From: Cordylochernes scorpioides
Lineage: Eukaryota
Direction: 5' to 3'
Length of the DNA: 64,000 bases
Assembly: GCA_030710605.1 (NCBI GenBank)
Contig: CP092864.1
Coordinates: 139,423,418 to 139,487,417, forward strand
Numbering within the stretch: the first letter of the stretch is position 1; the number at the start of each line of letters is the position of its first letter. A program made the position numbers and the translations under genes. Under the pieces are notes generated by a model. It had not been told where the DNA came from and made no database searches. It worked only from the letters and a program-made list of their open reading frames with translations. Positions 15,851 to 51,936 of the stretch are shown here, piece by piece.

Positions 15851-15889
15851 ATGTGGTCTTAGAGTCTTCTTGATGGATAAAAGATAATT

Positions 15890-21766: not shown

Positions 21767-22918
21767 CTGTCACACATATCATCTAGGATTAAAACCTACG
21801 TTTTTTTTTTAATCAGGAAGATGGAGATCTTTAAACACGCATACATTTATTAAGACAAACTGGTCTTATAGAAGATTTTTCTTGGAGATTACAAGATGTG
21901 GAAACTGAGAACAAGAAATATATACAGAACAACAAAAAAAAAAAGGTTTTTGTACACATGATATATTACATCTATATATATATTAAAGATTTATAGACAG
22001 AATAGTTAATAACACACATTATAAATTATGGGCACTATAGAAGCTTATTGATTCTTAAGAGATCTTTAAGCAGTTACAGAGAGATGAAATCTTTATATTT
22101 CCATAACATGGGGCCAATGGCTTTCAAGATAATAGACTTTCATCAAGGTCCAAAGAATAATGAAAATGTCTTGAGAGTTGTTTACGTCACACCTAGAGAG
22201 GGGGGGCAAAGTCTGACTGTGGATAGCCAACCAACGGCAGCAGCTTACCCATCATGGAGACTTATGAACACTTAGGTAAGGGTGAGAGCTGCTGTTTTGA
22301 AAGCTAGTGGCCTATTTTATCATAATGCAGCAACTAATCACTTTCATCATAAAACAGCTCGAGGAGCATGAACTCATGGAATTCGTGTAATCTTTGCACA
22401 AGGGGATAAGAAACAACAACAACAACACTAATCTCTGTGTGTGTGGCTGTTTTAAGATCTCCTAATTTTAAATAGAACCAGCTAGCTATTCTAGCCAAAT
22501 ATATTTCATATTTTGGCACAAAAGGGAACAAAGGAAAGATACTAATACTATAAAAAATTTGAAAAGAGCAACTGATAAAATGGGATGTATCCATTTAGAA
22601 GCTTTCAGCAGTAATTATTGTCTAGATCATGAAAATTTCCAAAGGTTTCATTAATTAAGGCTTATTGTATGCATATTGTTGACACCTACACTGTAGGTTC
22701 TCTCCAATCACTGAGTGAGGATGGTATGCATTTTCTTGTATCTATAATCCAAATTGTGCTTTATCAAATCTAAACTACAAATAACATTTTCTTATCAAGC
22801 AACTGAAAGTTGCTGATGGCTTGCGCCATCTATCGGAATAAATATCAACTATTCTCGTTGATTTTTAATTATTCCAGAATTGGCCAAATACCCATTCTTG
22901 ATTAACCAAGAAAAGCTA

Positions 22919-22960
22919 ACCACGGACGCGTTTCGGGCTGTTGGCCCTCATCAGCGTGGT
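22919..22960 (-). ncRNA. Minimal type I hammerhead ribozyme motif, inverted copy (same strand as MVP)
   Basis: Plus strand reads ACCACGGACGCGTTTCGGGCTGTTGGCCCTCATCAGCGTGGT, the exact reverse complement of the HHR at 23210-23251. Confidence 0.75.
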
Positions 22961-23209
22961 GCAAGCTGTACCTCAACGACCAAAATGATAGATGGCGCAA
23001 GCCATCAGCAACTTTCAGTTGCTTGATAAGAAGAAGCCTTTTTCTTAATTTATGCACCTTATCCCAGTACAATATTACATTTGTACTATTTTTTCACATT
23101 GTGTAGCGTTCTCACGCAATTCTGGCCTTAACTACCCGTTTCATGATTTTTCAGGATGCCTTAAGGACCAATTTTTTTTTTTTTTTTTGGTCGTTGAGGT
23201 ACAGCTTGC

Positions 23210-23251
23210 ACCACGCTGATGAGGGCCAACAGCCCGAAACGCGTCCGTGGT
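23210..23251 (+). ncRNA. Minimal type I hammerhead ribozyme motif (intact core)
   Basis: ACCACG-CUGAUGA-GGGC(CAACA)GCCC-GAAA-CGCG-UC|CGUGGU. Helix I is 6 bp (ACCACG/CGUGGU). Core C3-A9 is complete. Helix II is 4 GC pairs with a 5-nt loop. G12A13A14, A15.1/U16.1 and the GUC cleavage triplet are present. The palindromic ACGCGU helix III is typical of dimer-acting minimal HHRs. Predicted cleavage after C23245. Confidence 0.8.
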
Positions 23252-23550
23252 TAGCTTTTCTTGATTAATCAAGAATGGGTATTTGGCCAATTCTGGAATA
23301 ATTAAAAATCAACGAGAATAGTTGATATTTATTCCGATAGATGGCGCAAGCCATCAGCAACTTTCAAGTTGCTTGATAAGAAGAAGCCTTTTTCTTAATT
23401 TATGCACCTTATCCCAGTACAATATTACATTTGTACTATTTTTTCACATTGTGTAGCGTTCTCACGCAATTCTGGCCTTAACTACCCGTTTCATGATTTT
23501 TCAGGATGCCTTAAGGACCAATTTTTTTTGGTCGTTGAGGTACAGCTTGC

Positions 23551-23592
23551 ACCACGCTGATGAGGGCCAACAGCCCGAAACGCGTCCGTGGT
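23551..23592 (+). ncRNA. Minimal type I hammerhead ribozyme motif (second direct copy)
   Basis: Identical sequence to the 23210-23251 copy; predicted cleavage after 23586, 341 nt downstream of the first site. Confidence 0.8.
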
Positions 23593-23920
23593 TAGCTTTT
23601 CTTGATTAATCAAGAATGGGTATTTGGCCAATTCTGGAATAATTAAAAATCAACGAGAATAGTTGATATTTATTCCGATAGATGGCGCAAGCCATCAGCA
23701 ACTTTCAGTTGCTTGATAAGAAGAAGCCTTTTTCTTAATTTATGCACCTTATCCCAGTACAATATTACATTTGTACTATTTTTTACAAATAACATGATGA
23801 AACCAAACAAAAATTTGATATTTAGAGATCAGAGTGTGAATTAGAAAACAAAGGTAACATTAATAAAAAAAAATTAGGCAATTGCATGTCTGTCATTATT
23901 GAGAAGGGTAAATCACTTGC

Positions 23921-30649: not shown

Positions 30650-31068
30650 CTGTCAACAACCCCCATTTATTGAGTTAGCTATATATATGTAGATGGAAAA
30701 TTTGCCGGGAGGAAATTAATCCATAGAAGCAATGGGCGCCTCTCCCGTCGTTTGACGTTTATTTTGACGGGAGAGGCGCCCATTGCTTCTATATATATAT
30801 ATGTGTGTTCATTAATTAATAACACAAGGTAATATGACCAAATCTAAATAAATAAATAGTGTGTGACATTTTGGTAAAAGCATTGTTACCAACTTCAGAA
30901 AAAAGTACTGAATGAGAAATTACGAACAACAGTTACCGAAATGTTACACTCTATTATTTTATTTGAATTAGGTCTTACTTTCTTGTAGCTATAATCCAAA
31001 TTGTGCCTTATCACTAGAAAATTCAGTTCCTCTGTCTGTAGCACTCAGGGAGGGCCACCAACACCCAC

Positions 31069-31535: not shown

Positions 31536-31705
31536 CTGTACAACACATCACACCTCTGTACTCTTAATTGTTGTGCTGGTGATCTGAGGTACTTGGAGAA
31601 AACATCTGAGAGATGCCTTTAAACGTTTATTAAAAACCTAATTATGCTTGAAGAAAAAAAAAAGAACTTTCAATCTATGATAAAGCAAAATTTGAATTAT
31701 AGATA

Positions 31706-31880: not shown

Positions 31881-32145
31881 AAGGTTAAAGGTAACAACAC
31901 TGTTACCAAAATTTCACTCACTATTAATTTATTTGGATTAGGTCTTATTTTTTATTGTATCTATAATCCAAATTGTGCTTTATCATATTTACCAATATGT
32001 AGTTGAAATAGGAAAAAAAAAAGATGTAATTTCCCCAAATATTTTACAAAACAACGAGCAATCCAGGGTTAAGTTTCTTTTAGAGAAATAAAAAAAGTAT
32101 TTAAAAAAACACGTAACCCTGTTAGGGATGAGAGAACATGTATTA

Positions 32146-32323
32146 CAGTAAAACCTCCATGAGAGGACACTCCCGCTATTGGACACCTCTCTATAAAGGA
32201 CAGTTTTCATATACAAAATTACCATTTTTAATATTTAACAACTCTCTGGTAAGAAAACACTGTTCCATAAAGGACACCTTTGCTCTGCAACTAGGTGTTG
32301 TCCTTTACAGGGAGGTTCTACTG
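32146..32323 (+). mobile_element. MITE family A copy ending about 37 bp from the MVP exon 7 donor
   Basis: cagtaaaacctccatgagaggacac...cagggaggttctactg. Confidence 0.75.
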
Positions 32324-32360
32324 TATATTGTTTACACCACAGGCTAGCCAGGGTCCTCAC

Positions 32361-32510
32361 CTTGCCAGTCTTGATGTCCCTGACGTAGATACCCTCGGTG
32401 TCATCGAGGGGGATGGCGTAGCGCTTGGTGACCACCTCTGTGGTGATGAGAGGAATGAACTCAGCGGGACCACAGATCATCCACTTGTCCCCAGGCTTGC
32501 GCACCACTGG
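32361..32510 (-). CDS. MVP: MVP exon 7
   Basis: Acceptor attgcag|CCA; translates to PVVRKPGDKWMICGPAEFIPLITTEVVTKRYAIPLDDTEGIYVRDIKTGK. Donor AAG|GTGAGG. ORF 32235..32516(-). Confidence 0.85.
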
Positions 32511-33589
32511 CTGCAATCATTGTTACACTTCAGCAAGGTGGGACAAGAAGTGAAATGACCAAAATTCAAAAAAATATCCAACTAAATGAGCCCATTATGC
32601 AACAAAAGGTTTTTTTTTTTATATACTGTGAACTATGTTGATTTTAAAGCCAGCAATAGTTAGCATGTAACAGGTTCAAAACAAAACAAAATCTAGACTT
32701 CATAAAAATAGGTGAAAGCTGGAAATGGAAGAAAAATACGTATTAACTTTTTATTTGAACTGTGCAATGCTAGAATATTACTTTCAAGCAACAAAGTATT
32801 AGAGACAATTTTTCAAGTAAACTTTAAATTATAAGTGTAGAATGGTGAAGTTGTTTAAAATAAAGTTTTGCCCCTAAGAATTACATAATAATAGGCATAA
32901 AGGTACATATATAAGCTAATGATAAGAAGAATTTCATTAAAGGACTTCTTTTCACAAGATATTTTCTGGTCAGTTTGATATTCAGCATTAATGTATGGAA
33001 ATAGGTTGATTTAGCAAATTTACACAAAATGACCATTATTAATTAATAGTCCTTCAATTATACTCTCTAAAAATTTTGAAAAGTAGAAAAAAAAAAAACA
33101 AATCCATGGCTATAGTGAACCAAAAGTTCCATTGAATTCACTATAGAGGGGCTTTACTGTATCTTTAATAAATACAGACGAACTTCAATAATTCAAAGCC
33201 CAAGGGACCAAAAAAAATCGAATTATCCAAAAATTATAAACAGAAATTCTAGGAACTAAGATAAATATCTGAATTATAGACATTTTCAAATTAAAGACAT
33301 TTGAATTATCCAAGTTCTGCTGTATTTACAAATCTTCAAAACTCAGATTTAATTGTTTTAAAATAAAGATCTGATCCACATCAAGTAATTCTACATATTT
33401 TAACACTTTGAACCCGAAGGATGCGAATTCACATCCTTACCTACTGAGGAGTCAAGCCCAAAGGAGGTAAATTCGTATTCTCGATTGGCTTTGTGCCTTG
33501 TGATTGCCTGATTTGGACTTTACTATGAGGACTGGTTAAAAAGGAGTAATTCAACTATTGTGTGTGATCATCTTATTGAAGTTAAAAGA

Positions 33590-33790
33590 AAATACAAGGT
33601 AATAAGACCAAATCCAAATAAATAAATAGTGTGTGACGTTTCGGTAACAGCGTTGTTACCATCTTCAGACAAAAGTACTGAATGAGAAATTTAACCACAG
33701 CCTGTTTTTAAATAGTTCCTGTTATCACACACTATTTATTTATTTGGATTTGGTCTTATTACCTTGTGTTTATAATCTATAATCCAAATT
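33590..33790. mobile_element. Palindromic hairpin MITE family B (GGCACAATTTGGATTATAG...), representative copy
   Basis: aaggtaataagaccaaatccaaataaataaatagtgtgtgacgtttcggtaacagcgttgttacc...gtgttatcacacactatttatttatttggatttggtcttattaccttgtgtttataatctataatccaaattgtgcc. At least 15 further copies, including 2090-2300, 7975-8085, 10490-10660, 17935-18075, 30820-30990, 47975-48360, 48640-49040, 50975-51300 and 52110-52440. Confidence 0.7.
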
Positions 33791-35216
33791 GTGCCTTATC
33801 AATTAAAAGAAAATATGTAAATATATTATTTAAAATTGAAGATACTTTGGCCAGTAAATCTTTTTATTATCTTGATGTTTCGACAAAAATCTTTTGTTCT
33901 CATCAGGAGTAAACAAAAATTGATACATTTGGCAAGGAGTTAAAAATTAGGCATCCTCTATCTTTATGATATATTATTTAAGAAAAGTTCATTTATTTTA
34001 TGATTTGAATATATGTAAATTTAATTATTGTAGAAAAGGTTATTTGCATACTTCATGTGCTGACTGCCAACAAATTTGCAGCTGGATGAACACACTGATG
34101 GTTGATCAGGGTCTCTCCCTCGGTTTATCTAGATTCTACAAGGCCGCAGTCAATGTCCGTTGGAGAATGATGGATTCGCCGAATGTCATGGTTTGCTCGG
34201 AGGAGGAAAGCGAAGATTGAATGCGGCTGATTCCACACTAGCCCTCTCAATGATATCTTAACCTTGACATATTCTAAACATTGGTACTTTAATTTAAATA
34301 TTTAATCATGTATGGTTCCTTTTGCTCTGTATGTTTATTTTTTATATATATGGTTATATTTCTTTTTGTTTGGTTTTTCTTTCTTCTCTCTTTCCTTATT
34401 ACTTCTTATATTCTAGTTTTTACTTTTGAAATATCTTCCTTTCCTAAATCCCGTAGAGGGGAATCATGTATAGGGCTGGATGCCCTAATAAAAAAGGCTT
34501 ATGTGTGTGTGTGTATACTTCATGTGTATATAGTTGTTAGTTAAGTGTATTTTGAGGATAGTGATGAAGACATGATGAGGCTCAGATTTGTAGGCCTATT
34601 TGTTCTTAATTCTTTAATAAATGTTTTGTGAAGACTTCTTCTTTCTTATTCCTACTCAATCATATCAGGGTATCAAGCTTGTAGAGCTTGTTGATGGTAT
34701 CTGCTGGGGATGAGTAGAGTTCATCAATGAATCTTCTTCTTCTTCTTTCTTATCTCCACTCAATCATATTAGGGTATCAAGTTGTGACCCTTGATGGTGT
34801 CTGTTTGACAACCATCATGACTGGGTGAAGTAGAATGTGTCTGCCTTTGTCATTAAGACTGGGAGCACTACTCAGTGGCAGGCCGACTTAGCTCCAAAAG
34901 AAATGGCCGCCTCTGACATGAGGAACAGATGCCATGTGCAGTCGCTCCTAACATGGAGTACAAACACTGCTCATCCTGTATCCCTGGATCAGGAGCCCTT
35001 ACAGGGTACTATCAGCCGGGCCAGCTGAGCCCAGGTTTTTTAGCGAGCTTGTTACTGCTCCCCCTCCTTCTTTTTCATCTGGGCTTGGGACCGGCAAAGA
35101 CGGAGTAAAATGAATTAGTCAATACAGTCATATGATGTGTTGTGAAATAGAGAGTGAAGGGAAGTCTTCTTGAACTTATATTAAAAAGAATTCCCTTCAC
35201 TACAACATAAACTTAC

Positions 35217-35348
35217 AGGATCGACAGTGTCATCAGTGAACCCCTCCCGAGCTCTGAGGATGAGGCCTTCAGTCTCCCCGAGGACATAGATGTCCTGGAT
35301 GCCGGCTTCCAGCTTCTCCCCAGGCTGGAGGAAGAAAGACTTCTCTCC
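35217..35348 (-). CDS. MVP: MVP exon 6
   Basis: Acceptor tgtcag|GGA; translates to [44 protein letters not shown]. Donor CCT|GTAAGT. ORF 35181..35465(-). Confidence 0.85.
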
Positions 35349-35550
35349 CTGACATACCACACACATGTGAGCTGGTTTATAACATTCAATATCACATACA
35401 CACAGTATTAGAGTACTAAGAAGCGGTCTGGTAGATGAAATTGGCGAAACCTCTGGAAGGGTCAAACACTGATGAGCCGAGCCCTTCCAATATATTTTTC
35501 ATTGCAGCAAGGACAGAAAATTTCATGCTTTAATGGTTTGATGTATTATA

Positions 35551-35707
35551 CAGTAGAACCTCCCTGTAAAGGACACCTAAGTGCAGAGCCAAACTGTCCT
35601 TTAGGAAGAGGTGTTCTCCTACCGAAGCGTTGCTAAATAGTAAAAATGGTCATTTTGCAAATGAAAACTGCCTTTGGAGAGGTGTCCACTAAAGAGAGGT
35701 TCTACTG
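35551..35707 (-). mobile_element. MITE family A copy (MVP intron 5)
   Basis: cagtagaacctccctgtaaaggacacctaagtgcagagcc...agaggttctactg. Confidence 0.75.
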
Positions 35708-36067
35708 TATAGGAGAACTGTAAGTGAAACTGGAAAATCTTGGCCATAAATGTGATTTGGTCTAATGGATGTGCAGATATTGGGGCCTTAAGAACACCTA
35801 TTTGATCTGTATTAGAGCAGCTAGGTTTCTTCATCATGATAAACATCATACCTATGGTGTAACTATACTATGTGATTGATAACAAATCATTCTGCCATGT
35901 ATTGCCAGGTGTTGGAAGTCTTAGTCGGTGATGGCTGCAACTTTAGAATGAGATAGCTTGCTGGGTGACAGATTGGAAGAAAGTCTTTAATTCACCTCTC
36001 AATTCTTTAAATCATTGTATTGTTGGTGGTGATTTATAAAATTTAAAAATGGCTAACCTTCTAAATG

Positions 36068-36300
36068 ACCAGTTTTTTTGTTGTTGAGGTACAGCTTGCA
36101 ACATGCTGACAAGGGCCAACAGCCCGAAACGTGTATGTGGTTAGCTTTACTTGATTAATCAAGAATGGGCATTTGTCAAATTCTGGAATAATTAAAAATC
36201 AACAAATAGTTGATATTTCAGTTGCATGATAAGAAGATGCCTTTTTATTAATTTATTCACCTTATCCCAGTACAATTTGATGTTTGTACTATTTGTTCAC
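36068..36300 (+). repeat. Degenerate dispersed copy of the HHR-bearing repeat (core mutated to CUGACAA, G8A)
   Basis: gttgttgaggtacagcttgcaacatgctgacaagggccaacagcccgaaacgtgtatgtggttagc plus shared downstream unit sequence (cttgattaatcaagaatggg...ccttatcccagtacaat). Confidence 0.7.
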
Positions 36301-37384
36301 CTAATTCTTTTTTTGAAGTAAACGAAAAATTGCGCTACAAATAATAAAAATAAAACTACAACCTTTCGCAATGAGTTTCTTTTATTATGATATACGCGAG
36401 CTTTCGGGCTGGAGCCGCCCTTCTATGGGCAATATTTCAGCATACCATGAATACCGGCCACAAATTTAATTTAGATAGTCCAACTTGCCACTATAGTAAC
36501 ATAACCACCAAATCTGAAAGATTAATCCTTGAATTGCTGATTTCCAAACAACACAATAGCATTAATCGTAGAATAGATATCCCAGAACAATTTTGTCATA
36601 TTCCATACCACAAAAATCAGATTTCTCGCTTATCCAATCTATAGTCTAAAACTTAACTTTATTAAAATATTGAAATTTAAGGTTAATTTACTTCCAATTG
36701 TTAAACATAGTAAAATAGTAATAATTTATGTAGATTTAATACTTTTCTTTCTGATAATTTATGTAAAATTTGTAACAAATTAATGCATATAACTGTCTCT
36801 CAAAAATCAAATAGTTCATTTTTGCCTGTAGAAGGGCGGCTCCAGCCCGAAAGTTCGCGTATCTACTTATATAATTGCCTTATTCTGTCTGTGTGAAGTT
36901 CACTGTGTGAAGTATGTGGATATGGATGGAATGGATAAAATAAAAAAAGTGTCAAGGGATGGGAATCGAACCCACGACCTTCCGCTTACCAGGCAGATGC
37001 CATGACCACTAGGCCACATGACCACAATTTATAATTGTAACAAATAGTATTTGAATCAAAACATTCAATCGGGTAAAACACGGGTGTTGCCCGGGTCATT
37101 CGGCTAGTATCATAATAAAAGAAATTCATTGCGAAAGATTCTAGTTTTATTTTTATAATTCTTTTTTGTTTAAGGTGGAAAAATATCGGGCTTCTGAGGC
37201 TAAATTTCTTTTAAAACATTTTTCGGACACAAAAGCTAGGGATTTATGAATTTAAATGCTTTGAAAGAAACTTGAAGCCTGATAATTTCATCTCAATATT
37301 TGATACAAGGCATTATTTTAATGAACTGTAAATTTTTTTTTTTTTGTTCTTTTATTTCAGAGAATAAACAACTTTTTGTATTGT

Positions 37385-37554
37385 CTACAAACTCCCTGTA
37401 CAGGACACTTAATTGTAGAGCCAAAGTGTCCTTTAGGGAGAGGTGTCCTCTTACCGGAGAGTTGCTAAATAGTAAAAATGGTAATTTTGCAAACGAAAAC
37501 TGTTCTTTGTGGAGAGGTATCCGCTAGTGGGGTGTCCAGGTTGAGGTTCTACTG
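37385..37554 (-). mobile_element. MITE family A copy (MVP intron 5); further partial copy at 37866-37912
   Basis: ctccctgtacaggacacttaattgtagagcc...ttgaggttctactg. Confidence 0.7.
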
Positions 37555-37925
37555 TATATTTTTAAAAAAAGTGAGTGGAGGGTATTTGTGAGACTTGGTG
37601 AACAAGGTTCAACTGCATTAACTTATCCTTGATGTAACGCATGCTTCATAATTTGGGTATATTCCTATTCACTAAGCTTTGTGCTCAAAGGTGAGTGGGG
37701 GGTGCTCAGCTAACGGAACCAACTCACCTGACTCCAGGCATAGGGCTACAAACATAATATATATGGTGGGTGCTCAGCGTGTTCTTCATGTGTCAATACA
37801 CTCATGGATGAACACATAAGGAAGTTGTACCTTCCTAGCATGTATATCGGGATTCAGACAAAAACACTTTGGCTCTGCAATTAGGTGTCCTTTACAGGTA
37901 GGTTCTACTGTAACAAAATTCCCGT

Positions 37926-38222
37926 AGGATGGTCTAAACCATTGGTTTTCGGCCGCTATGACCCGGGTTCGATTCCGGCATTGGGCACTTTTTTTATGTT
38001 AAAAAAAAATAAAAATGCTCCAATGGCCCCCGATTCTTGCAAAAGTCCAACCCCACCAGCGAGTGCAAGTAACCAAACTGGTACATTTGTATGTGCAAAG
38101 TCGTACTATTTTCACATGTGTAGACATGTGGTACACTTACAGTAAAAGCAGTCGCCTACTTCTACCCACCATGATTATCATGGCCTGTACCATGTGTACT
38201 AGGGATAAGCAAAAAAAAAAAA
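37926..38222 (+). mobile_element. tRNA-derived SINE copy (5'-truncated head), TSD aaattcccgt; MVP intron 5
   Basis: aggatggtctaaaccattggttttcggccgctatgacccgggttcgattccggcattgggcac...actagggataagc(a)10. Confidence 0.8.
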
Positions 38223-38575
38223 TTCCCGTGTGAGGTCTGCTAGTTCCCCCTATCGGGCGCCACCCCAGGTGGCAGATAGGGGAATGCCTCCCAGAAATGG
38301 GCGGTACCAGGAAAATGAAATACCCGGGGTGAATCAAAGACTGTGGCAGGTTCTTGGGACACAGTATCAGCCCCAGAGTAACACATGGTCTTTGGAGAGA
38401 ATGTCAGAGAACTGGGAAGCATGGAAAGACCATGTGGCCCACCCTCAGTAGAGGAAGGCACTGAAGGAAGGAAGGAATAACAAAACTATCATGTATCAAA
38501 ACAAGCAGCTAATAATTCTATCCTCAAACTAATAATTCCTCTTTCACAAAAATGTGTTATAACATATACATATAC

Positions 38576-38815
38576 CTTGACCAGTTTCTTCTGTCCCAGC
38601 TGAGGCTTGCCAGTCTCAGCATTGACGGGGTCGAGGATGACACAGTACTGGCGGTTGGAGAGAGTGACTATGGGCACCAGCCCCACCACCTGGACGTACA
38701 CACTGGGGATGTAGGTCTCCGTGTCCTCCATGGTCACCAGCCACTCCTCTCCGTTCTTCCTCTGCTTGCCAAACTCATCCGTGAAAGTCCTGGTGGCTTT
38801 GACATGGATGGCCTC
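38576..38815 (-). CDS. MVP: MVP exon 5
   Basis: Acceptor tggcag|GAG; translates to [80 protein letters not shown]. Donor AAG|GTATAT. ORF 38489..38737(-). Confidence 0.85.
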
Positions 38816-40159
38816 CTGCCATCACACCGCACCTGGTGAGAGCAGTAGTCTTAGGGGAATATAGGGGGAAACATGATTTCAATTGGATTCCATGTTAAAA
38901 TATTAAGGGGGTAAAAAGACCAAATCCAAATAAGTGGTCTATACATGACAGAGCATTTATAATTCTTTATAGATAAAAGCCTAGGGCACTTCTCCCGTCA
39001 AAATAAACATCAAAACTACACACCATCTATGGACCATCGCCGCAGACTAGCGGCCTGGGTCAGTAACAAAGCCACAACACCAGCTTTGTCAAATTGAGAA
39101 GTGTCCGCCAAGAGACCATGGTTTTGGGTTAATGGCCCTCAGCAGCCTAGAGCCAACTTTATTCCATGATATCCATAAGGGATCCAATGGAATCCTCAAA
39201 ATCTACCAAAGAGATGTTTAGCTGGCAAAGTGGCTGAGCAAATCTATGGCCAAAATATAGATGGAAATTTTGCCGGGAGGAAATTTATCTAAAAAAGCAT
39301 AGGGCACTTCTCTCCTATCAAATAAATGACAAACACCATCTATATTATATATTCATTTGTTTTTGGATTTACCCGTTGAAGAACAGGGTTTTGCTCGAAA
39401 GCTCACACCTCAATGTATTTGTATTAGAGCTTAGAAACATGTATAAGACTATAAATCTAAATAAAAATATAGTAAGTGATGTTTCAGTAACAGTGTTGCT
39501 TTTGTCTGATGATGTTTACAATATTGTTAATAAAACAACACATACTCATTATTTGATCTCCATCATGCTTTATAAATAACACAGAAGCTGGCTAGGAAGA
39601 TTAGAGATGTCAAGAAATGCCCCAACCAAATGAAAACTTTGAAAAGTCATCAGAACAAATTACTACAACTGTATTCTTTCAAAAGGAAAGATGCAAAAAA
39701 GAGGAGGACACAAAAACAATTTGTGACTTTTTTCAATTGTTGTGCTAACCATTTGCCAAGGCATATGTTGGTGAAGGTATATTGTTTACTATTGGGCGTA
39801 AAGGACAGTTAGGCTTGTGGACCTTTGTTTTACCATATATATTGGGAACATGTGCATCATAATTTTTTAACTTGGTTAAAAGCCTATAATTAATATATTT
39901 ATTTTTTCTCCAGTTTTTAAGTATGGCATTCAATTTATTTTTGAAGTTTTTGTTGGATTATTTATTTTGTTACTTTTAGTGTCATATATAAAGGTGAAGT
40001 GCAGAAACATAAGATATACCTTTGTGCCTCTCTATAACCACATCACTTTGTACCAAGATGTTGTTATATAACCAAGTTATTATAACCATGGTTAAAGTAA
40101 GTGGGACCATAGAATGGTGCTGGTCTACCCACCAAGCTATAGAAGAGGTATGCAGTTGT

Positions 40160-40700
40160 AACCACCAAGTTATCTTCTTCTTCTTTCTTATCTTCACTCA
40201 ATCATATCAGGATATCAAGCTTGTAGAGCTTGTTGATGATGTCTGTGCTGGGCATGAGTAGAGCTCATCAATGGATGAGTCAATACAGTCAATAATGTGG
40301 TTTGGGATTGCAGGTTGAGAATTGTGCTTAGTACATAGTGGGAAAACTTTACAACCATTCTGGAAAGTCATTGTCCGTAGATGACCAGACTTAAGTCTGG
40401 AAATCAAAGACTGTTGTCCACCAATATATATAGGAGGTAGGCAGTTGTAACTACCAAGTTATCTTCTTATTCTTCTTTCTTATCTCAACTCAACAATCAT
40501 ATTAGGGTATCAAGCTTGTAGAGCTTGTGATGGTGTCTGCTGGGGATGAGTAGAGCTCATCAATGGATGAGTCAATACAGTCAATAATGTGTTTTGGGAT
40601 TGCAGATTGAGAATTGCACTTAGTACATAGTGGGAAAATCTTGCAACCATTCTGTAAAGTCATTGTCCATAGATGACCAAACTCAAGTCTAGAAACCAAG
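40160..40700 (-). mobile_element. Two adjacent non-LTR retrotransposon 3' fragments (RT C-terminal CCHC-like motif plus (CTT)n tail); MVP intron 4
   Basis: ORFs 40207..40407 and 40502..40699: ...SRLKSGHLRTMTFQNGCKVFPLCTK.NSQ.AIP.HIIDCIDSSIDELY...; tail gtgattgagtgaagataagaaagaagaag. Confidence 0.7.
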
Positions 40701-40740
40701 TTATAAAAGAGGCAGGCTGTTGTAAAAAAAGTGTATGTAC

Positions 40741-40967
40741 CTTCTCAGTGAGAACATGGGCCTCCACAATGTCCATGATCTCCTCATAGGCCCCAGGCAG
40801 GTATGCTCCCACCTTCTTGACCAGCCATTCCTCCCCTGCCACCCTCTGGTTGCCATCCCGGTCCTTGGTCTCTTTCTCCGCCCGCAGCTTGAGGGCCTGG
40901 TTGGGCTTGATGACTGTGGCCACAATGGTCTCCACCACCTCCACCTCCTTCCTGGGAATGTAGGTCC
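40741..40967 (-). CDS. MVP: MVP exon 4
   Basis: Acceptor tatcag|GG; translates to [76 protein letters not shown]. Donor AAG|GTACAT. ORF 40660..40995(-). Confidence 0.85.
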
Positions 40968-41539
40968 CTGATACACAACATATACTCCCATTCATCTATT
41001 CACTTCCTTATTTATAATATTGTCATGCATTAAGTCTAAATGAAATATACTCATGGACAAAACTTATGAAAGTTATACCTTTTAGCATGTATATCAGGAA
41101 TTAGACAATAACTCTGAAAGATATTACAGGAACCTTTAGTGAATACACACGAGATAACCGGGGGGGAAGAAGTCTGACCTCACCTCCCTTGACCCTTGGA
41201 ATATTCGACTAAATTCTGGTCTGTTTCCAAGGCGACTAACGTGGCAATGACATCCATTTTCCAATGAAGAGCAAAATGCATGGAGACATCTAAGGTTTTT
41301 CATTGGACATAACAACAACGAGATAACCAAGTGTGAACAAAGTTGTCTCTGTCTCCTTCTAAGAACACTCTTGAAAATTTACTCTCAAAATCACTCTAGA
41401 AATAATCATTTTCAAGGCATTTCCAGAGAAAAATATGCCTATCAAAATATAGTAAAACTTGTCTCTAAAGGACAACACCTAGTTGCAGAGTGTAGTTTAG
41501 ATAGAAGTGTCCAGAGAGTTACAAATTAGTAAATATTTT

Positions 41540-41650
41540 TGGTCACAGAGGTACAGTCTGCACCACGCTGAAGAAAGCGTTCCACTAGATGGCGCTCTGC
41601 CATCTAAAAGTTCATGTGAACGTGGTCAGGAAATGCCTTTTTTTATTTAT
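41540..41650 (+). repeat. Internally deleted copy of the HHR-family repeat, abutting the mariner-like element
   Basis: ggtcacagaggtacagtctgcaccacgctgaagaaagcg...ctagatggcgctct...gtggtcaggaaatgcc. Confidence 0.5.
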
Positions 41651-42985
41651 ATACATAGTGTGATCAATAATTTCCAGGAATGCTAAATATTTAAAGAAAT
41701 ACAAAAGTATAATAAAGTTTTATTTAAAATTTCTCAAAATAATCACCGTCACTATCTATACACTTGTTCCATCTTTTTTCCAGATATCAAAACACCTCTA
41801 AAAATCCTCATCTTTCAGGCTTTTCAAAATATTCTTCGTATTCTCCTTTATTTCAGGTATTGAGTCAAATCGACATCCTTTTAAGACTTTTTTAATTTTA
41901 GGGTAAAGGAAAAAGTCGTTGGGAGCAAGTCAGGAGAATAGGGTGGCTGGGGTAGTAAAGCAATTCCATGTTTAGCCAAATAGAGTGGTACAGTGACGGC
42001 CGTATGTGGCCGTGCGTTGTCATGATGCAAGAGCCAATTTTTCTGATGCCATTTTTTGGGTCGTTTCTGATACACAGCCTCCCTTAAATGTCGCAATACA
42101 TCAAAATAGTAATGTTGATTAATGATCTGACCCTCGGGCTCGAATTCATAGTGTACCAATCCCTTTACATCAAAGAAAGTGATAAGAAAACACTTAAACT
42201 TCGATTTGATCATCCTTGATTTCTTGAATCTTGGTTCTCCAGGCTCTAGCCACTGGCTTGATTGCCTCTTAGTCTCGGGATCATATCCGTACACCCATGT
42301 TTCATTTCCCGTGATAATATTTTTGAGCCAATGGGGATCAGAATTAAACATTTTGACTATGTTTTTGCATGTTTCTTTGCGATCCTCTTTCTGCTCATTC
42401 GTTAAGAGATGTGGGACAAATTTAGCTGGGGATCGTTTAAGATGCAGATCATTCTTTATGAGGGTTTGGTATGTTCCAAAAGAGATATTCAAGTCTTCTG
42501 ATAGCTCTCTGATATTTATTCTTGGGGTTTCTTTGATGGATAACTTGATTTTGAGTGCATTTTCGGGGTTTCTTATTGATAAAGGTCTGCCAGTATGTAG
42601 ATCATCCTTGACACTTTTTCAACCAGCTTTAAATCGTGCAAACCATTCAAATTTCCTCGATTGTGATAGGGCATCTTCTTTAAAAGTCTGCTTCAACATT
42701 TGAAATGATTCAGAAGCTGTTTTCCCTAATTTAAAGCAAAACTCTATGCAGACTCGCTGTTTTTCAATACAGTCTATACTGAAGTTAGAAAATGTTCTGA
42801 TATACTCGAGATTATAAATTCGAAAAAAAAACATGAGCGCGTGCGTCTGTGTGTTCATTTTTTTTTTCTACGTATTGATAAATGTTTTATCTATAAGGTC
42901 CTCATAAAATTATTTCATTATTTTGAATAGTTTACATGATCCAGTCTCATATTTGGAAATTATTGATCACACGTTGTATATATGG
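41650..42985 (-). mobile_element. Mariner-like element (Tc1/mariner superfamily) with frameshifted transposase; in MVP intron 3
   Basis: ORF 42619..42858(-) matches the mariner N-terminus (...CIEFCFKLGKTASESFQMLKQTFKEDALSQSRKFEWFARFKAG). ORF 41881..42492(-) contains WLLHHDNARPHTA and LLPQPPYSPDL. The C-terminal ...GDYFE lies in another frame. Imperfect TIRs are acatagtgtgatcaataatttcc (41653-41675) and rc of 42956-42978, with TA flanks. Confidence 0.85.
41881..42492 (-). pseudogene. Mariner transposase catalytic-domain fragment (DD34D-type motif HHDNARPH)
   Basis: The 203-aa ORF aligns to the mariner transposase core; the N- and C-terminal parts are in different frames. Confidence 0.8.
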
Positions 42986-43083
42986 CAGTAATGTTTTAAA
43001 TGCCAAAGTTGATGCTATAGTGAATTCTACCAAGTTAGCCTCTACCCACCCGAAAGAAAGAGATGGTAATAAGAGCCACCTAC

Positions 43084-43207
43084 CTGGGCCTTCAAAGAGC
43101 CATTCATCCTTGGCCCATCTCTTGACCTGGCCCTCGTCAACAAAATCTCTGGTGGCTCTCAGGCGGAAGGCAGAGTTGGTGGGCACCACTTGGAGCGGGG
43201 TCACATC
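43084..43207 (-). CDS. MVP: MVP exon 3 (53-bp intron upstream)
   Basis: Acceptor acatag|GAT; translates to DVTPLQVVPTNSAFRLRATRDFVDEGQVKRWAKDEWLFEGP(G). Donor CCAG|GTAGGT. ORF 42947..43204(-). Confidence 0.85.
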
Positions 43208-43260
43208 CTATGTCACAGCCATGTTGTTCGCCAGTTCCCCGTCAATCCTCATTGGCTCAC

Positions 43261-43456
43261 CTGATAGAGCTGCTCCCCCGGGTAGAGAGGGAAGGGTTCC
43301 TGTTCCAGCCGGATCTCCAGGTCCGCATGGCGTAGCTTGATCTGGTTCAGGGTGTCCACCACAATCTGGTTCTGCTCGTCCCGGGCCACCGGATTCCTGA
43401 TGGTGCAATAGTGGCAGGGGGGCACTACCACCATCTTCTCCGGGCCCAACACCACT
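43261..43456 (-). CDS. MVP: MVP exon 2
   Basis: Acceptor ctgcag|A; translates to ..VVLGPEKMVVVPPCHYCTIRNPVARDEQNQIVVDTLNQIKLRHADLEIRLEQEPFPLYPGEQLYQ. Donor CAG|GTGAGC. Covered by ORF 43249..43455(-). Confidence 0.85.
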
Positions 43457-43563
43457 CTGCAGCCACAATCCCCTCAACTGTGGGACTCTAACCTAAATAT
43501 ATATTTGGGTGTAAAAATAAAAATATATATAAAAACAGTCAGGTTTTATTATTTTTTTAAATA

Positions 43564-43738
43564 CAGTAGAACCTCCCTTTAGCGGACACCATGCTAGTAG
43601 ACACCTCTCCATAAAGGACAGTTTTCATTTGCAAAATTACCATTTTTACAATTTAGCAACTCTCCGGTAAGAGGACACCTCTCCCTAAAGGACACTTTGG
43701 CTCTGCAATTAGGTGTCCTTTACAGGGAGGTTCTACTG
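43564..43738 (+). mobile_element. 176-bp Tc1/mariner-type MITE (family A; TIR CAGTAGAACCTCCC, TA TSD), reference copy
   Basis: ta|cagtagaacctccctttagcggacacc...aggtgtcctttacagggaggttctactg|ta. Confidence 0.8.
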
Positions 43739-43837
43739 TACATTTAAAAAAAAAATTCTTATTTTTCAGATGTTTAGCATAATTATGCAAAATGTTCTTG
43801 ATTTCTCAGGAAAACTCAAAGACCAACTTTTTGGTTA

Positions 43838-44035
43838 TGAGGTACAGTCTGGCATCACGCTGAGGAGGGCCAACAGCCCAGAAAGGGAATGTGGTTGGCT
43901 TTTCTTGATTTATCAAAAAAATGAGTTAGCTAAATATTATAAAATAAACTTTAAAAAAATGTTTAATTTATTTTTGTTACACTAGATGGCGCTCTTCAAT
44001 CTCATGTGAGTGGTCAGGATATGCCTTTCTTATTT
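43838..44035 (+). repeat. Degenerate dispersed copy of the HHR-bearing repeat (CUGAGGA; GAAAC lost)
   Basis: ggttatgaggtacagtctggcatcacgctgaggagggccaacagcccagaaaggg...cactagatggcgctc...gtggtcagg. Confidence 0.65.
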
Positions 44036-44745
44036 TTAATATATTAGCGTATAAATGTCTTTCAGTAGCAGAAATATGTGGGGAATGATACAACAATTCC
44101 TTAGTGAGACCAAGTACTCTGTTCTGAAGCTTGACAACCACACTGTCACTATTACAATTCTTATCTTAATTTTGGTATTGTTACCTTTGACCCATTCTAT
44201 TGATAGCTCATAGAGAGACCACATCTGTTTCTTGAAACATGCCAAAAATGTTTTTTTTTCTAACCCATCAGTTGATTGCTTAAACTAACTTGCACAGACC
44301 ATGCTTTCCTAGTATATTGATGACTTGCTGGGGGATTTTGTAGATATCTTGTTTGTTTAGGCCACAGCACTGCAGGATGTGTTCTGCGGATGCCTCACAG
44401 CCAGACATTTTGTGCAGTGTAAAAAAAAAGTGTAAGGCACAATTTAGATTTTAGATTATCAACACCAGGTGATATGACCAAATCCAAATAAATAATTTAT
44501 TTATTTGGATTTGGTCTTATTGTGTTTAGGTAAAAAAAAAGGCCCAAAATGTAGCTTGACACCTGCAGCTCCAGAACACATTTTGGCTTGCATTAGATGC
44601 ATTGAACAGGACCTTTGGGAGAGGCCGCTGCTTATCATAAAACAGCTCGAGGAGCATAAACTTATGGAATTCATGTAATCTTTACACAAGGGGATAAGAA
44701 ACAACAACATGTCAAAAAAGAGTGAATTGTGATGAAGAAACTTAC

Positions 44746-44903
44746 ACCTCAGTGTCACTGGTGACGTAGGTCTTGGGTCCTTTCTCCACCCGGGTGACAT
44801 TGGTGGAGTGGTCGAGGATGTGGAGGAAGTGGTAGGGAGGGATTCTGTGGACTGTGTTCTCCATCCCGCTGCCTCCTCGGTGCTCCTTGCTTCTGTTACT
44901 CAT
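44746..44903 (-). CDS. MVP: MVP exon 1 (start codon at 44903..44901; alternative in-frame ATG at 44864..44862), ends phase 2
   Basis: rc reads ATGAGTAAC...GGGATGGAGAACACAGTCCACAGAATCCCTCCCTACCACTTC... = M S N R S K E H R G G S G M E N T V H R I P P Y H F L H I L D H S T N V T R V E K G P K T Y V T S D T E. In-frame TAA lies upstream of the first ATG. Donor GAGGT|GTAAGT at 44745. Confidence 0.8.
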
Positions 44904-45194
44904 CCTTCTGCTGCTGTCACCACACCCAGGTTAAACACAGAGGTTGTCACAGGTAATGACAGCTCTTATGATAATACATCCTAGTTGAGGAAAGCAATCT
45001 CATTAGTGGGCCATTTACTGATTGGCTGCCTCTCCTCTAAACACTTTGGTAAAACTCTACATTCATGGACAAAACTAGAGGAAGTGGAAAGTCTAATATC
45101 GCTAGTCCTCTATTTTTTTAAGGGGACAGAAGTAATTTTGTACACAATTGGCTATCTTGTGTGTCTTCAATAAAGGTTACTGTGTATCAAATAG

Positions 45195-46180
45195 CGTTCT
45201 GATTTATTGTCTGAATCCCAATATACATGCTAAAAGGTACAATTTCCTTTAGTTTTGTCCAAGCGTGTATCTTTCAGAGTTATTGTCTGAATCCCGATAT
45301 ACATGCTAAAAGGTACAACTTCCTCAAGTGTTGTCCATGAGTATATCTTTCAGAGTTATTGTCTGAATCCCGATATACATGCTAAAAGGTACAACTTCCT
45401 CAAGTGTTGCCCATGAGTGTATCTTTCAGAGTTATTGTCTGCATCCCAATATACATGCTAAAAGGTACAACTTCCTCAAGTGTTGTCCATGAGTGTATCT
45501 TTCAGAGTTATTGTCTGCATCCCAATATACAGGCTAAAAGGTACAACTTCCTCAAGTGTTGTCCATGAGTGTATCTTTCAGAGTTATTGTCTGCATCCCA
45601 ATATACATGCTAAAAGGTACAACTTCCTCAAGTGTTGTCCATGAGTGTATCTTTCAGAGTTATTGTCTGAATCCCGATATACAGGCTAAAAGGTACAACT
45701 TCCTCAAGTGTTGTCCATGAGTGTATCTTTCAGAGTTATTGTCTGAATCCCGATATACATGCTAAAAGGTACATCTTCCTCAAATTGTGTCCAAGAGTGT
45801 ATCTTTCAGAGTTATTGTCTGAATCCCGATATACAGGCTAAAAGGTACATCTTCCTCAAGTTGTGTCCATGAGTGTATCTTTCAGAGTTATTGTCTGAAT
45901 CCCGATATACAGGCTAAAAGGTACATCTTCCTCAAGTTGTGTCCATGAGTGTATCTTTCAGAGTTATTGTCTGAATCCCGATATACAGGCTAAAAGGTAC
46001 ATCTTCCTCAAGTTGTGTCCATGAGTGTATCTTTCAGAGTTATTGTCTGAATCCCGATATACAGGCTAAAAGGTACATCTTCCTCAAGTTGTGTCCATGA
46101 GTGTATCTTTCAGAGTTATTGTCTGAATCCCGATATACAGGCTAAAAGGTACATCTTCCTCAAGTTGTGTCCATGAGTGT
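45195..46180. repeat. 77-bp tandem repeat x about 13, immediately upstream of the MVP 5' end
   Basis: (tattgtctgaatcccgatatacaggctaaaaggtacatcttcctcaagttgtgtccatgagtgtatctttcagagt)n; related single copies at 57120-57230 and 44990-45200. Confidence 0.9.
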
Positions 46181-46485
46181 AACTTGAGCTCTGCTTTAAC
46201 CACCTCCAGAAGAGACCAGGAGTAGCCAATCCCTCACAGGAGATTGTCCTCGACCAAGAATAGATATCTCATTACAGTAAAAGTCTCTCAATTGGCTTTA
46301 AATAGATTCACTGAAATTTATTCCTATGTTTGCTATCATTTAATGGGAACACAACATATATAGTCTTCTCTCTTTATAATAGGTATATTTTATAACAGGC
46401 TTTCGATATAACAGACAAAATCAGGAGTCACCTTAAAATTACATTGAAAATGAACCATACTTTATAAAAGACATACAGTAGAACC

Positions 46486-46650
46486 TCCCTTTAGCGAACA
46501 ACCCGCTAGCGGACACCTCTCCACAATGGACAGTTTTCATTTGCAAAATTACCCTTTTTACAATTTAGCAACTCTCTGGTAAGAGGACACCTCTCCCTAA
46601 AGGACACTTTGGCTCTGCAATTAAGTGTCCTTTACAGGGAGGTTCTACTG
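46486..46650 (+). mobile_element. MITE family A copy
   Basis: cagtagaacctccctttagcgaacaacc...cagggaggttctactg. Confidence 0.75.
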
Positions 46651-46857
46651 TACCTTACAACAACCAAATTGGCTAGTCCCTTGGGTAGGGGGCAGTTTTA
46701 AAGTGAGTAGACTGTATAGCCATACTTCTCTCATAACAACAACATTTGGGGCCAAGTTTGTATGTCATTATAACCACAGTTGGAACAATAGGAAAGTAAA
46801 TGGCCTTAAATACCTATTTCTTTATTACTCAGGAAGTCTCAAGGACCAGTTTTTTGG

Positions 46858-46965
46858 TCGTTGAGGTACAATCTGGAACCACACTGATGGAGGCCAACAG
46901 CCCAAAAGGTGTATGTGGCTAGCTTTTCATGATTTATCAAAAAAACTGGGTTGGCTAAATATTAC
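46858..46965 (+). repeat. Degenerate dispersed copy of the HHR-bearing repeat
   Basis: ggtcgttgaggtacaatctggaaccacactgatggaggccaacagcccaaaaggtgtatgtggctagc. Confidence 0.6.
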
Positions 46966-47069
46966 AGAAGTAACCTAAAAATGATTGTTTATTACTCCCT
47001 AGTAAAGCTGGGGACTATAGAATTATGATGTTAATCAAGTTGTTATAATAAAGGAGGCTGTTGTAACAG

Positions 47070-47500: not shown

Positions 47501-49049
47501 ACAACAGCAACAACAATCCTATTATTTTCATTATCAAACCCTAGTCATTGAGGATCATCTAGTGTATTCTTCTCCATGTGGAATCATTTTGGTTCTTCAT
47601 CCAAGTCTCTTACTCATTGGACTCGCTGCGAAATGTCTCCAATTATTATAATCTCAGAGACAGTCATCATAGAACATTGGCTTTACCCTCCAGTAGGACA
47701 AAATTCCACGATGTGAGTTTGCGGAGAGGCTGATACTAAGTGCTTCTCCCAAAACTTATATTTAGATGAGATAACAAACAAGGCTATAAAAGCTCTGTTT
47801 TCCTTCTCCTTGTTGAACTGTGTTCCCCATTCCCCCAAAATCATCAGTAGTCCTAATTAAAATACAATTGAACCTCTCTGTAAAGGACACTTAGTTGCGG
47901 AGCAAAAGTTTCCTTTAAGGAAATGTCTTTCTACTAGAGAGTTTGCTAATTACATATGATAAGGCACAATTTGGATTATAATAAGGAACAATTTATATGA
48001 TAGATTATAAACACAAGGTAATAAGACCAAACCCAAATAAATAAATAGTGTATGACATTTCAGTAACAGCGTTGTTACCGAAACGTCACACACTATTTAT
48101 TTATTTGAATTTGGTCTTATTACCTTGAATTTGGATTATAGATTAGCAACACAAGGTTAAAAACACCAAATCCAACTAAATAGCATGTGACTTTTCGGTG
48201 ACAACGCTGTTACAGAAACTTCACACACTATTTATTTATTTGGATTTGGTCTTTTTATCATTCAGTACTTTTGTCTGATGATGGCAACAATACTATTACG
48301 GCAACATCACACACTATTTATTTTTATTTGGATTTGGTCTTTTAACCTTGTGTTGCAATTACATAGAGAAAATGGTTTGAATAAAAGCTTTTAAATATGG
48401 TAAATTTTGGAGAGAGAGATGAAAACTGTCCTTTATAAAAGGATGACCTCTAGCAAGGGTCCTCTTATAGAGGTTCAACTGTACTAGACTGTCAGTGGCA
48501 TTTTAGCAACATTTGTTAAATTTACATTTCATCAGTTTTTTGTATTTAGGAATAACGTTTTTTCAAATGTCATTGTTAAACTACAAATTTTGATTGTTAT
48601 TTCAAATATTTGCTATTAAAAATTTTATATTATAATCCAAATTGTGCCTTAACAAAATTGTCATCTTTTTGATTTCTGTTTATCTTTGATAGTAAATACA
48701 AGAAAATAAGACCTAATAATTTAATAGTGTGTGACGTTTCGGCAACAGCATTGTTACCACCATCAGACAAAAGAATAAATGAGAAAAAAATATCACAGCA
48801 AGTTCTTAAATTGTACTGTTATCAAGTGTGTAAATAAGATAACAGATAAGGAAAAATTAGTTTTTTAAAACAACCTGAAATATTATTCTTAGAATTAGAA
48901 GTGGAATTTTTTTTTACATACTTGAAAACAGTACTATTTAAGAATAGGCTGTGATATATTTTTCTCATTTATTCTTTTGTCTGATAATGGTAACAACGCT
49001 ATTACCGAAATGTAACACAATATTCAATTATTTGGATTAGGTCTTATTT

Positions 49050-50880: not shown

Positions 50881-51936
50881 TTTTACTTTTCCAGCCAGTC
50901 CCCATTGTTGACTGTATAATGCAAGGAGATCCTATATGAATGGATTCACTTCATCAACTTGCACTGTTAATGTTAAAGCACAATTTGGATTATAGATTTT
51001 AATAAAAGAAAACAAGACCTAATCCAAATAATTTATTAGTGTGTGACGTTTCGGCAACAACATTGTCACCATCATCAGACATTTATTCTTTTGTCTGATG
51101 ATGGTGACAATGTTGTTGCCGAAACTTCACACACTAATAAATTATTTGGATTAGGTCTTGTTTTCTTTTATTGCACAGTTAAATACAAGAAAATAAGAAC
51201 TAATCCAAATAAATTAATAGTATTTGACATTTCGATAACAATGCTGTTCCTGAAGTGTCACACACTATTAATTTATTTGGATAAGGTCTTATTTTCTTGT
51301 ATTTAACTGTATAAGATGTTGAAGTACTATGTACCAAGTGCAATTCTCAGCCTGCAACCCCAAGACATATTATTGACTGTATTGACTCATCCATTGATGA
51401 GTTCTACTCTTCCCCGGCAGACACCATCAAAAATCTCAAGCTTTACAAGCTTGATACCTTAGTGTGATTGAGTGGAGATAAGAAAGAAGAAGAAAAAGAA
51501 GATGTTGAAGTGAATATTGGTAACAACACTGTTACCTAAACGTCACACACTATTAATTTATTCGAATTAGGTCTTATGGTGGTGTTGGTCAATATGGTAT
51601 TATTGGTCATGTTAGCACCATACATAGATCAGCCATCTTTGAATATCATTTTACAAATCTTATGCAATTCTCTCTTATAATGCCAGACCACACTATTTGA
51701 TTATCAAAACAATCTTTCCTTGGTCAACCATTCTTCAATAGGTCCAGCCTGGTCAAAATACTTCATTTAAATAGCAATCATGGAGTAAAGTCATTTCTGA
51801 GGTCATGGAACACCATTTTACTCTGCTCATGAACAAATCTTTTTACTTCTTTGTGTTTATCAATATAGTCTCCATTAAATCTTTTCCAAAGTAGCTACAA
51901 GAATTATTATTCACTGAATCACTTTTCCAAACTAAT

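Follow-up and report, generated by a model that had tools for sequence, protein, structure and literature searches.

A hammerhead-bearing 341-bp repeat family, very likely of the animal retrozyme kind, in a 64-kb window of Cordylochernes scorpioides

The DNA studied here is a stretch of 64,000 nucleotides from Cordylochernes scorpioides (assembly GCA_030710605.1, contig CP092864.1, positions 139,423,418 to 139,487,417), referred to below as the window. It is AT-rich animal DNA, with a GC content of 27-43%, and its minus strand carries the greater part of a major vault protein gene, the introns of which are filled with repeats. Besides the coding pieces listed in Table 1, further coding pieces lie near 23.9-24.1 kb and 21.5-21.8 kb. 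Our subject is a family of 341-bp repeat units that carry a hammerhead ribozyme motif and are present at six loci of this single window: one array at 22.8-23.8 kb and five old dispersed copies. The unit at 23189-23529 was taken as the reference and used as the blastn query against the window.

Tandem Repeats Finder gave the array a period of 341, with 2.3 copies and 97% matches. The unit has a GC content of 39%, its T runs are internal, and it has no A-rich tail; no open reading frame (ORF) was found in the 341-bp period. Neither blastn nor local alignment revealed terminal direct repeats besides the unit itself, while a primer-binding site and a polypurine tract were not formally searched. 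No Rfam match to tRNA, 5S or 7SL RNA was seen in 22700-23900, even at E-values up to 10. Folded as a circle, the self-cleaved monomer has a predicted minimum free energy of -111 kcal/mol compared to -68.5 +/- 5.2 kcal/mol for dinucleotide shuffles (z = -8.2). A metagenome scan for related DNA beyond the window, using the motif GAGGTACA-N(19-24)-GCCAACAGCCC, returned 40 loci, none of which was similar to the unit, indicating chance matches, and stricter motif scans of contigs from prokaryotic genomes and from viruses gave no loci.

The array consists of an inverted partial unit followed, one base further on, by a direct partial tandem. By blastn the inverted piece is 99% identical to unit positions 1-194; relative to the unit it has a single substitution and a single 1-nt indel. 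No substitutions separate the direct units; their differences amount to one 1-nt indel and the length of a T run. The composite is bounded on both sides by the same exact 11-mer, so that the boundaries read ...AAAC-TACAAATAACAT, element, ACAAATAACAT-GATG.... When 30-bp flanks from random positions of the window were paired, 0.5% of the pairs shared an exact 11-mer or longer, even before a position at the boundary was demanded. Because the duplication is exact at both ends and the units are nearly identical, the whole composite arose in a single recent integration. The array is thus one very young insertion, in which an inverted fragment and a partial tandem share a single target-site duplication of 11-12 bp. 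Its termini are offset (unit positions 197 and 256), which excludes a transposon with terminal inverted repeats. The empty, pre-insertion site at 22787/23796 would read ...CTACAAATAACATGATG..., and no paralogous empty site was found in the window. The left flank (22730-22773) is another dispersed repeat, which stops 14 bp before the insertion point.

The hammerhead of the array units reads ACCACG-CUGAUGA-GGGC-CAACA-GCCC-GAAA-C-GC-G-UC/CGUGGU and has all the conserved core nucleotides; the same core sequence, CUGAUGA-GGGC-CAACA-GCCC-GAAA-CGCG-UC, is present in all three array hammerheads. Helix I has 6 bp (ACCACG/CGUGGU), helix II has 4 bp (GGGC/GCCC), and helix III has only 2 bp, within the self-complementary palindrome ACGCGU. 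The canonical metazoan type I hammerhead is described as having a helix I of about 6 bp, a helix II of about 4 bp, and a helix III of 1-2 bp closed by a palindromic loop of 2-4 nt, and its unstable helix III leads to poor cleavage by a single copy, with two neighbouring copies making an active dimer (PMC4209133). As judged from its primary structure, the array hammerhead is of this canonical type I and would have the dimer-dependent design.

The 15-mer GAGGGCCAACAGCCC, allowing up to 3 mismatches, occurs 10 times in the window against 0.43 expected. A sequence-only reading of this DNA had listed five further copies of the unit, and blastn showed all of them to be real, though longer than listed (Table 1). 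In local alignments to a trimer of the unit, each of the five continues upstream into the unit tail, and the hammerhead-bearing head is thus not where they start. Over the well-aligned head they are 76-84% identical to the array (divergence 17-24%), and jointly they span almost all of the 341-bp unit, with their parts arranged in the circular order seen in the array. A profile search of the window, built from all copies, found no further significant copies. A possible sixth remnant at 39121-39146(-), CUGCUGAGGGCCAUUAACCCAAAAC, was not significant (E ~0.7-1.3) and was not counted.

The copy at 36061-36300 lies in an intron of the major vault protein gene, with exons at ~38.5 kb and 35.2-35.5 kb on either side. 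The copy at 41531-41640 has an internal deletion of ~105-118 bp, and the 3' half of its hammerhead is gone. It is directly followed by a mariner element with inverted terminal repeats and transposase ORFs. The earlier description of this copy as internally deleted and abutting a mariner-like element is thus confirmed. No significant homology to the unit resumes past the mariner, nor was any seen for the 43757 copy upstream of the repeat resembling a miniature inverted-repeat transposable element (MITE) at whose end that copy begins. Pairwise identities place each of the old copies nearer to the array than to the majority of the remaining ones. The copies at 46780 and 43757 share derived characters (81% identity over the aligned head, 79% by blastn over 174 bp) and form one subfamily, which the 41531 copy probably joins; those at 15725 and 36061 form another. 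Since vault exons lie between the copies and the compared flanks are unrelated, the five dispersed copies are old and independent insertions. They have been truncated, internally deleted, or interrupted by transposons.

An intact catalytic core was found in none of the five old copies, in agreement with the earlier claim that all are disabled. That claim also held that every copy carries a different lesion, which does not stand, since the copies at 15845(-) and 36080 both read CUGACAA. Similarly, CUGAGGA had been counted as a lesion, but it changes N7 only. This position is variable in natural hammerheads, and an N7 change alone (CUGAGGA, CUGAAGA) is no lesion; the 43838 copy is instead disabled by AGAAAG and the loss of U16.1, and the 41548 copy by its internal deletion. 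GAAAC, which had been described as lost, is retained at 36080. As for the proposed erosion of helix I, 5-6 of its 6 bp are still paired in three of four copies (36080, 43838, 46856), partly via G-U wobbles that arose because CpG-to-TpG changes occurred on both strands. Most CpGs of the reference are now TG or CA in the old copies, and the change of G12 to A recurs in three of them because G12 is the G of a CpG. To compare the core with the rest of the unit, we scored 11 strictly conserved positions against the array in each of the four copies with a scorable motif. Changes were found at 9 of 44 core positions (20.5%) and at 77 of 395 other aligned positions (19.5%; Fisher p=0.84). At the observed divergence, an untouched 11-nt core has a probability of 0.09, and the probability that all four scorable cores are changed is ~0.68. 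Thus, the old cores decayed neutrally, largely at CpG sites, as the sequence-only reading had supposed for solo copies.

Table 1. Positions of the array, the old copies and other features of the window. Unit positions refer to the 341-bp reference unit.
Feature	Position	Strand	Extent and structure	blastn	Hammerhead core
Left target-site duplication	22776..22787	.	(T)ACAAATAACAT; exact 11-mer, 12 with T, just outside array
Inverted partial unit	22788..22985	-	unit 1-197 plus four T of preceding tail		intact, 22905-22970(-), HH9 26.1 bits
Direct partial tandem, 2.3 units	22987..23784	+	unit 148-341, 1-341, 1-256	99.5-100%	intact, 23200-23265(+) and 23541-23606(+)
Right target-site duplication	23785..23795	.	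ACAAATAACAT
Old copy	15725-15952	-	unit ~233 to 121; 64% identity over 244 columns, 76% in head (local alignment)	15845-15756(-), unit 1-87, 76.7%, E=2e-13	CUGACAA (G8 to A), G12 to A, helix II weakened, 3-nt insertion after GAAA-equivalent AAAC; 3/11 core positions changed
Old copy (blastn head 36080)	36061-36300	+	unit 322 to 259; 35-bp internal deletion, unit ~143-177	36080-36300, unit 2-259, 76.7%, E=2e-59	CUGACAA (G8 to A) sole core change; GAAAC and helix II intact; 1/11 core positions changed
Old copy (blastn head 41548)	41531-41640 (41531-41574 + 41579-41640)	+	unit 332 to 34, then ~144 onward	41548-41574, unit 8-34, 88.9%, E=4e-4; 41536-41574 against array, E=2e-6; second segment 41579-41651 against 43976-44038, E=1e-9	CUGAAGA (N7 only), then all 3' of motif deleted
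Old copy (blastn head 43838)	43757-44080	+	unit ~252 to ~250, nearly full unit; begins at end of MITE-like repeat 43548-43756	43838-43919, 82.9%, E=3e-18	CUGAGGA (N7 only), then AGAAAG, U16.1 lost; 3/11 core positions changed
Old copy (blastn head 46856)	46780-46993	+	unit ~285 (possibly 257) to ~130; 46801-46855 is unit tail 285-339	46856-46943, 81.8%, E=9e-19	A9 to G, G10.1 to A, G12 to A
Mariner	~41640-42982		inverted terminal repeats 41648-41676, 42954-42982; ORFs match Transposase_1, HTH_48
Major vault protein ORF pieces	43252-43473, 40663-40995, 38492-38821, 35184-35498, 32238-32516, 31026-31547, 28582-28839	-	Pfam Vault, Vault_2/3/4, MVP_shoulder
Intact minimal-hammerhead motifs	33639-33668(-), 51049-51078(-), 51095-51124(+)
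Decayed minimal-hammerhead relatives (examples)	10556-10659, 17966-18094, 30836-30987, 31890-31957, 48063-48373, 48695-49049, 51518-51575, 52109-52164
MITE-like copies (examples)	43548-43756, 1-228, 8077-8247, 15508-15669, 24637-24931, 35549-35691, 46473-46656

Taken together, these repeats very likely constitute one family of non-autonomous hammerhead retroelements that belongs with the animal non-LTR retrozymes. The type I hammerhead, the 341-bp unit, the GC content of 39%, a duplication longer than 4 bp, and the lack of a long terminal repeat (LTR) account for the fit to this class, and the earlier suggestion of a mobile, retroposon-like family is borne out by the exact duplication around the array. 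In such a scheme, units would be transcribed as multimers, which paired hammerheads would cleave to unit length. The unit RNA, linear or circularised, would then enter the genome by target-primed reverse transcription in trans, with the reverse transcriptase most likely provided by a Penelope-like element (PLE), a partner that we infer. Template switching, rolling-circle copying, or twin priming could give rise to the tandem-plus-inverted structure, and monomeric or truncated insertions, unable to form the dimeric ribozyme, would be dead ends that decay.

Several observations weigh against this interpretation. The window has 139 open frames of at least 70 aa, of which 20 were searched with Pfam and the others inspected by eye, and no reverse transcriptase or GIY-YIG ORF was found in or beside any copy; Pfam matches among the scanned frames were confined to the mariner and the vault domains. 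The only candidate is 39748-39957(-), an 80-aa fragment that looks like the N-terminal region of a reverse transcriptase and has no Pfam hit. The array ends 3' at unit position 256, after a T6 run, and not at the hammerhead cleavage site, 57/58; the template was therefore not a plain self-cleaved linear monomer. The inverted segment and the duplication could equally stem from twin priming of the kind associated with long interspersed nuclear elements (LINEs). Around the old copies, target-site duplications, for which the sequence-only reading had proposed to look, did not rise above the random-window background, as is expected at ~20% decay. Finally, only tRNAs were detected in the window at Rfam gathering thresholds. 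A relaxed search gave sub-threshold Hammerhead_HH9 matches at the three array hammerheads (26.1-26.5 bits), the best of which falls far short of the gathering score of 52, and no family of clan CL00010 reached its gathering threshold. We attribute this shortfall to the 2-bp helix III and the short loops, as the core nucleotides all match.

The sequence-only reading had taken the tandem array for the active master copies. In this rival model the array is kept under selection for self-cleavage, and its solo offspring lose the core because they are solo. Intact cores do occur in the array only; the hammerhead is of the dimer-dependent type, so that a tandem context matters for cleavage (PMC4209133); and monomers are treated as non-mobile offspring in the literature (10.64898/2026.07.22.740005). 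However, the array itself is enclosed by a target-site duplication, and its units hardly differ, so that its intactness needs no selection. In addition, the old copies, at 17-24% divergence and in at least two subfamilies with shared characters of their own, cannot descend from so young a locus, and core and non-core positions decayed at equal rates. We therefore consider a master array rather unlikely. Because tandem or solo context is fully confounded with age (~0% versus 17-24% divergence), the dead solo cores are uninformative about context. The difference between the intact array and the dead solo copies is an age effect and not a sign of a master, and the finding that solo copies have dead ribozymes provides no evidence of selection in arrays unless age is controlled.

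It is very improbable that the dispersed copies are terminal-repeat remnants of truncated autonomous PLEs rather than copies of a retrozyme that is short and non-autonomous. Truncated PLEs have been held responsible for most of the single hammerheads in animal genomes (PMC4209133), and the window does contain PLE-type minimal hammerheads as well as the possible reverse transcriptase fragment. Against this, the copies jointly cover nearly the whole unit in the circular order of the array, no coding sequence for a reverse transcriptase or endonuclease adjoins any of them, and the 341-bp period of the array lacks an ORF. The remaining explanation, that the copies arose by segmental duplication or from one ancient satellite array split by later insertions, we find scarcely credible, in keeping with the earlier preference for transposition, which holds within the window. 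Four copies do share one orientation and fall within 11 kb (36-47 kb), and those at 43757 and 46780 are each preceded by a copy of the same MITE-like repeat. Nevertheless, conserved major vault protein exons stand between the copies, and the compared flanks show no homology beyond the unit. The spacing from MITE-like repeat to unit differs (~1 bp versus 124 bp), and the two MITE-like repeats are 93% identical where the units are 79-81% identical. Moreover, this repeat has at least 22 copies in the window, and its proximity to the units is only weakly significant (P ~0.03). The intervening exons, the unrelated flanks, and the mismatch in identity and spacing thus rule out a fragmented array and make segmental duplication very unlikely.

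The 15725-15952(-) and 36061-36300 copies, which lie in different places and orientations, share the G8-to-A core change and one other derived character, which suggests that at least one lesion may be older than the insertions that carry it. It is conceivable, though unlikely, that CUGACAA was inherited from their source, in which case a retrozyme lineage would have kept transposing without catalysis and self-cleavage would be dispensable for mobilisation. Naiad PLEs are hammerhead-less yet very successful, and transposition with a dead core, if true, would be in line with them. That the shared CUGACAA reflects a neutral N7 polymorphism plus one parallel transition seems quite improbable.

With respect to the host gene, the young insertion lies ~110 bp from the major vault protein exon near 23.9 kb. 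Copies that can be placed inside the gene (the direct units of the array and the other copies that lie upstream of 21.5 kb, the 15.7-kb copy not being placeable) are all antisense to it; the exception is the intact hammerhead of the young inverted arm. This bias could reflect selection against sense-strand ribozymes in pre-mRNA. The inverted arm, 22788-22985(-), puts one hammerhead with an intact core on the sense strand of a vault intron. Furthermore, this arm and 23189-23385(+), ~197 bp each and ~200 bp apart, could form a hairpin or double-stranded RNA. The intronic sense hammerhead and the hairpin of the young insertion may have effects on splicing or small-RNA production.

The window also contains a second, commoner hammerhead family. 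It is of the PLE 'minimal' type, reads CUGAUGA-U-GGUAACA-ACGC-UGUUACC-GAAAC-GUC-ACACAC, and has a bulged U and a helix II of 7 bp. At least 17 copies are present, 3 of them with intact motifs (Table 1). The copies at 18016/18033, 48063, 48197, and 52164 are palindromes joined head to head, with the helix II loop at the centre. The repeat in the left flank of the young array has further matches at 31950-31991, 30979-31013, 33775-33802, 50971-50997, and elsewhere, beside minimal-hammerhead copies, which may represent nesting of hammerhead elements. The 39748-39957(-) fragment shares 71-90% identity with short hypothetical proteins of Cordylochernes scorpioides, a similarity that hints at a shared retroelement, and it may resemble PLE reverse transcriptases. 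The minimal-hammerhead family and this fragment offer indirect support for a PLE partner.

Other repeats accompany these families. The MITE-like family (~200 bp, terminal inverted repeats TACAGTAGAACCTCCC..., internal 74-bp tandem) has copies within 370 bp of four of the five old hammerhead copies, a proximity assessed by permutation that we do not use in our argument; close to the fifth, at 41531, lies a partial copy (41447-41512) that is below threshold. About 40 bp past the 36061-36300 copy lies an element at 36340-37160, with 53-bp inverted repeats (36340-36392 / 37108-37160), an inner pair (36392-36432 / 36822-36862), and a tRNA-like gene at 36950-37022(-) scoring 46.7 bits. Homologous copies of a ~90-nt repeat at 30018-30070(-) and 35058-35112(-) carry the twister signature GCCGGUCCCAAGCCCGGAUGAAAAAGGAGG and have no P2 stem; their Rfam twister-P1 scores are 31 and 26.5 bits versus a gathering score of 67, and they may be what is left of a repeat family that carried twisters. 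An inverted pair resembling a hammerhead core, CUGAAGA-U-AGGC-UAAC-GCCU-GAAA, at 19541-19564(-) and 19959-19982(+), flanks an 81-bp tandem (19596-19850); this pair showed no proper helix I or III and may be due to chance. ORF pieces with a C-terminal zinc knuckle (..GHL...C..C......H.L..C) occur at 870-1166(+), 2617-2979(-), 21055-21333(-), 40210-40744(-), and 52385-52705(+), one of them inside a 292-bp tandem at 40129-40699. By eye these resemble LINE ORF2 tails, and the five pieces scanned gave no Pfam matches.

Dispersed monomers as non-mobile offspring, tandem organisation, a dimer-type hammerhead, and a link to PLEs are already in the literature. The present family is at most a new addition to it, of little significance beyond annotation. 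The locus does provide a clean textbook example of an animal retrozyme, combining an intact hammerhead of the dimer type with exact duplication of the target site and a tandem-plus-inverted layout.

Among known systems, newt satellite 2, Schistosoma Sm-alpha, and cave-cricket pDo500 are built of tandem units a few hundred bp long that carry a type I hammerhead of the dimer type, and they also have dispersed copies. Unlike these hammerhead satellites, the present family forms no long satellite array in the window, and a tRNA-like head for RNA polymerase III, such as Sm-alpha has, was not detected in the unit by Rfam. The sequence-only reading had considered the family retrozyme-like or like a short interspersed nuclear element (SINE). 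The first description suits the unit, while the second gained no support, given the absence of a tRNA, 5S, or 7SL Rfam match and of an A-rich tail and the internal T runs. A plant LTR retrozyme, which has type III hammerheads in two LTRs, a primer-binding site, a polypurine tract, and a 4-bp duplication, was rejected, as the unit has a type I hammerhead, a duplication of 11-12 bp, and no LTRs.

Twin priming of LINE-1 (Ostertag and Kazazian, 2001) reportedly leaves an inverted upstream segment and a direct 3' segment within a target-site duplication of 10-20 bp. Twin priming on a multimeric or circular template would yield a partial tandem plus an inverted fragment. In contrast to the LINE-1 case, the template of the array would have been a multimeric or circular 341-nt RNA, and there is no poly(A) tail.

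Animal non-LTR retrozymes have tandem units of 150-450 bp with a type I hammerhead, a low GC content, and target-site duplications of more than 4 bp, and they lack an LTR, a primer-binding site, and a polypurine tract; the examples of Cervera & de la Pena 2020 include repeats of 350-390 bp in mussel and 220-240 bp in coral (PMC7229834). The family resembles them in its tandem unit size, its one type I hammerhead per unit, its GC content, and its duplication, as well as in the LTR that was not seen, the self-paired predicted circle, and the dispersed monomers beside multimers. It differs in having one intact locus only, with 2.3 direct units and an inverted fragment.

A 2026 bioRxiv preprint derives animal retrozymes from PLE terminal repeats and regards monomers as non-mobile offspring (10.64898/2026.07.22.740005). 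The 341-bp unit is unlike a PLE in having no associated reverse transcriptase or GIY-YIG ORF, as would mark an autonomous PLE, and its canonical 4-bp helix II differs from the bulged helix II of 7-8 bp of the minimal PLE hammerheads. The 30-40 bp 'tail' extension of PLE insertions was not seen in the array. On the other hand, the tiny palindromic helix III, the expected function as a dimer, and the many truncated single copies are shared with PLE hammerheads (PMC4209133). PLE insertions include partial tandems with an adjacent inverted, 5'-truncated copy (PMC8557442), and the array, with its partial tandem and adjacent inverted fragment in one target-site duplication, has the same layout as these PLE terminal repeats (pLTRs). 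By structure alone, its architecture supports the proposal of PLE-type or twin-primed integration.

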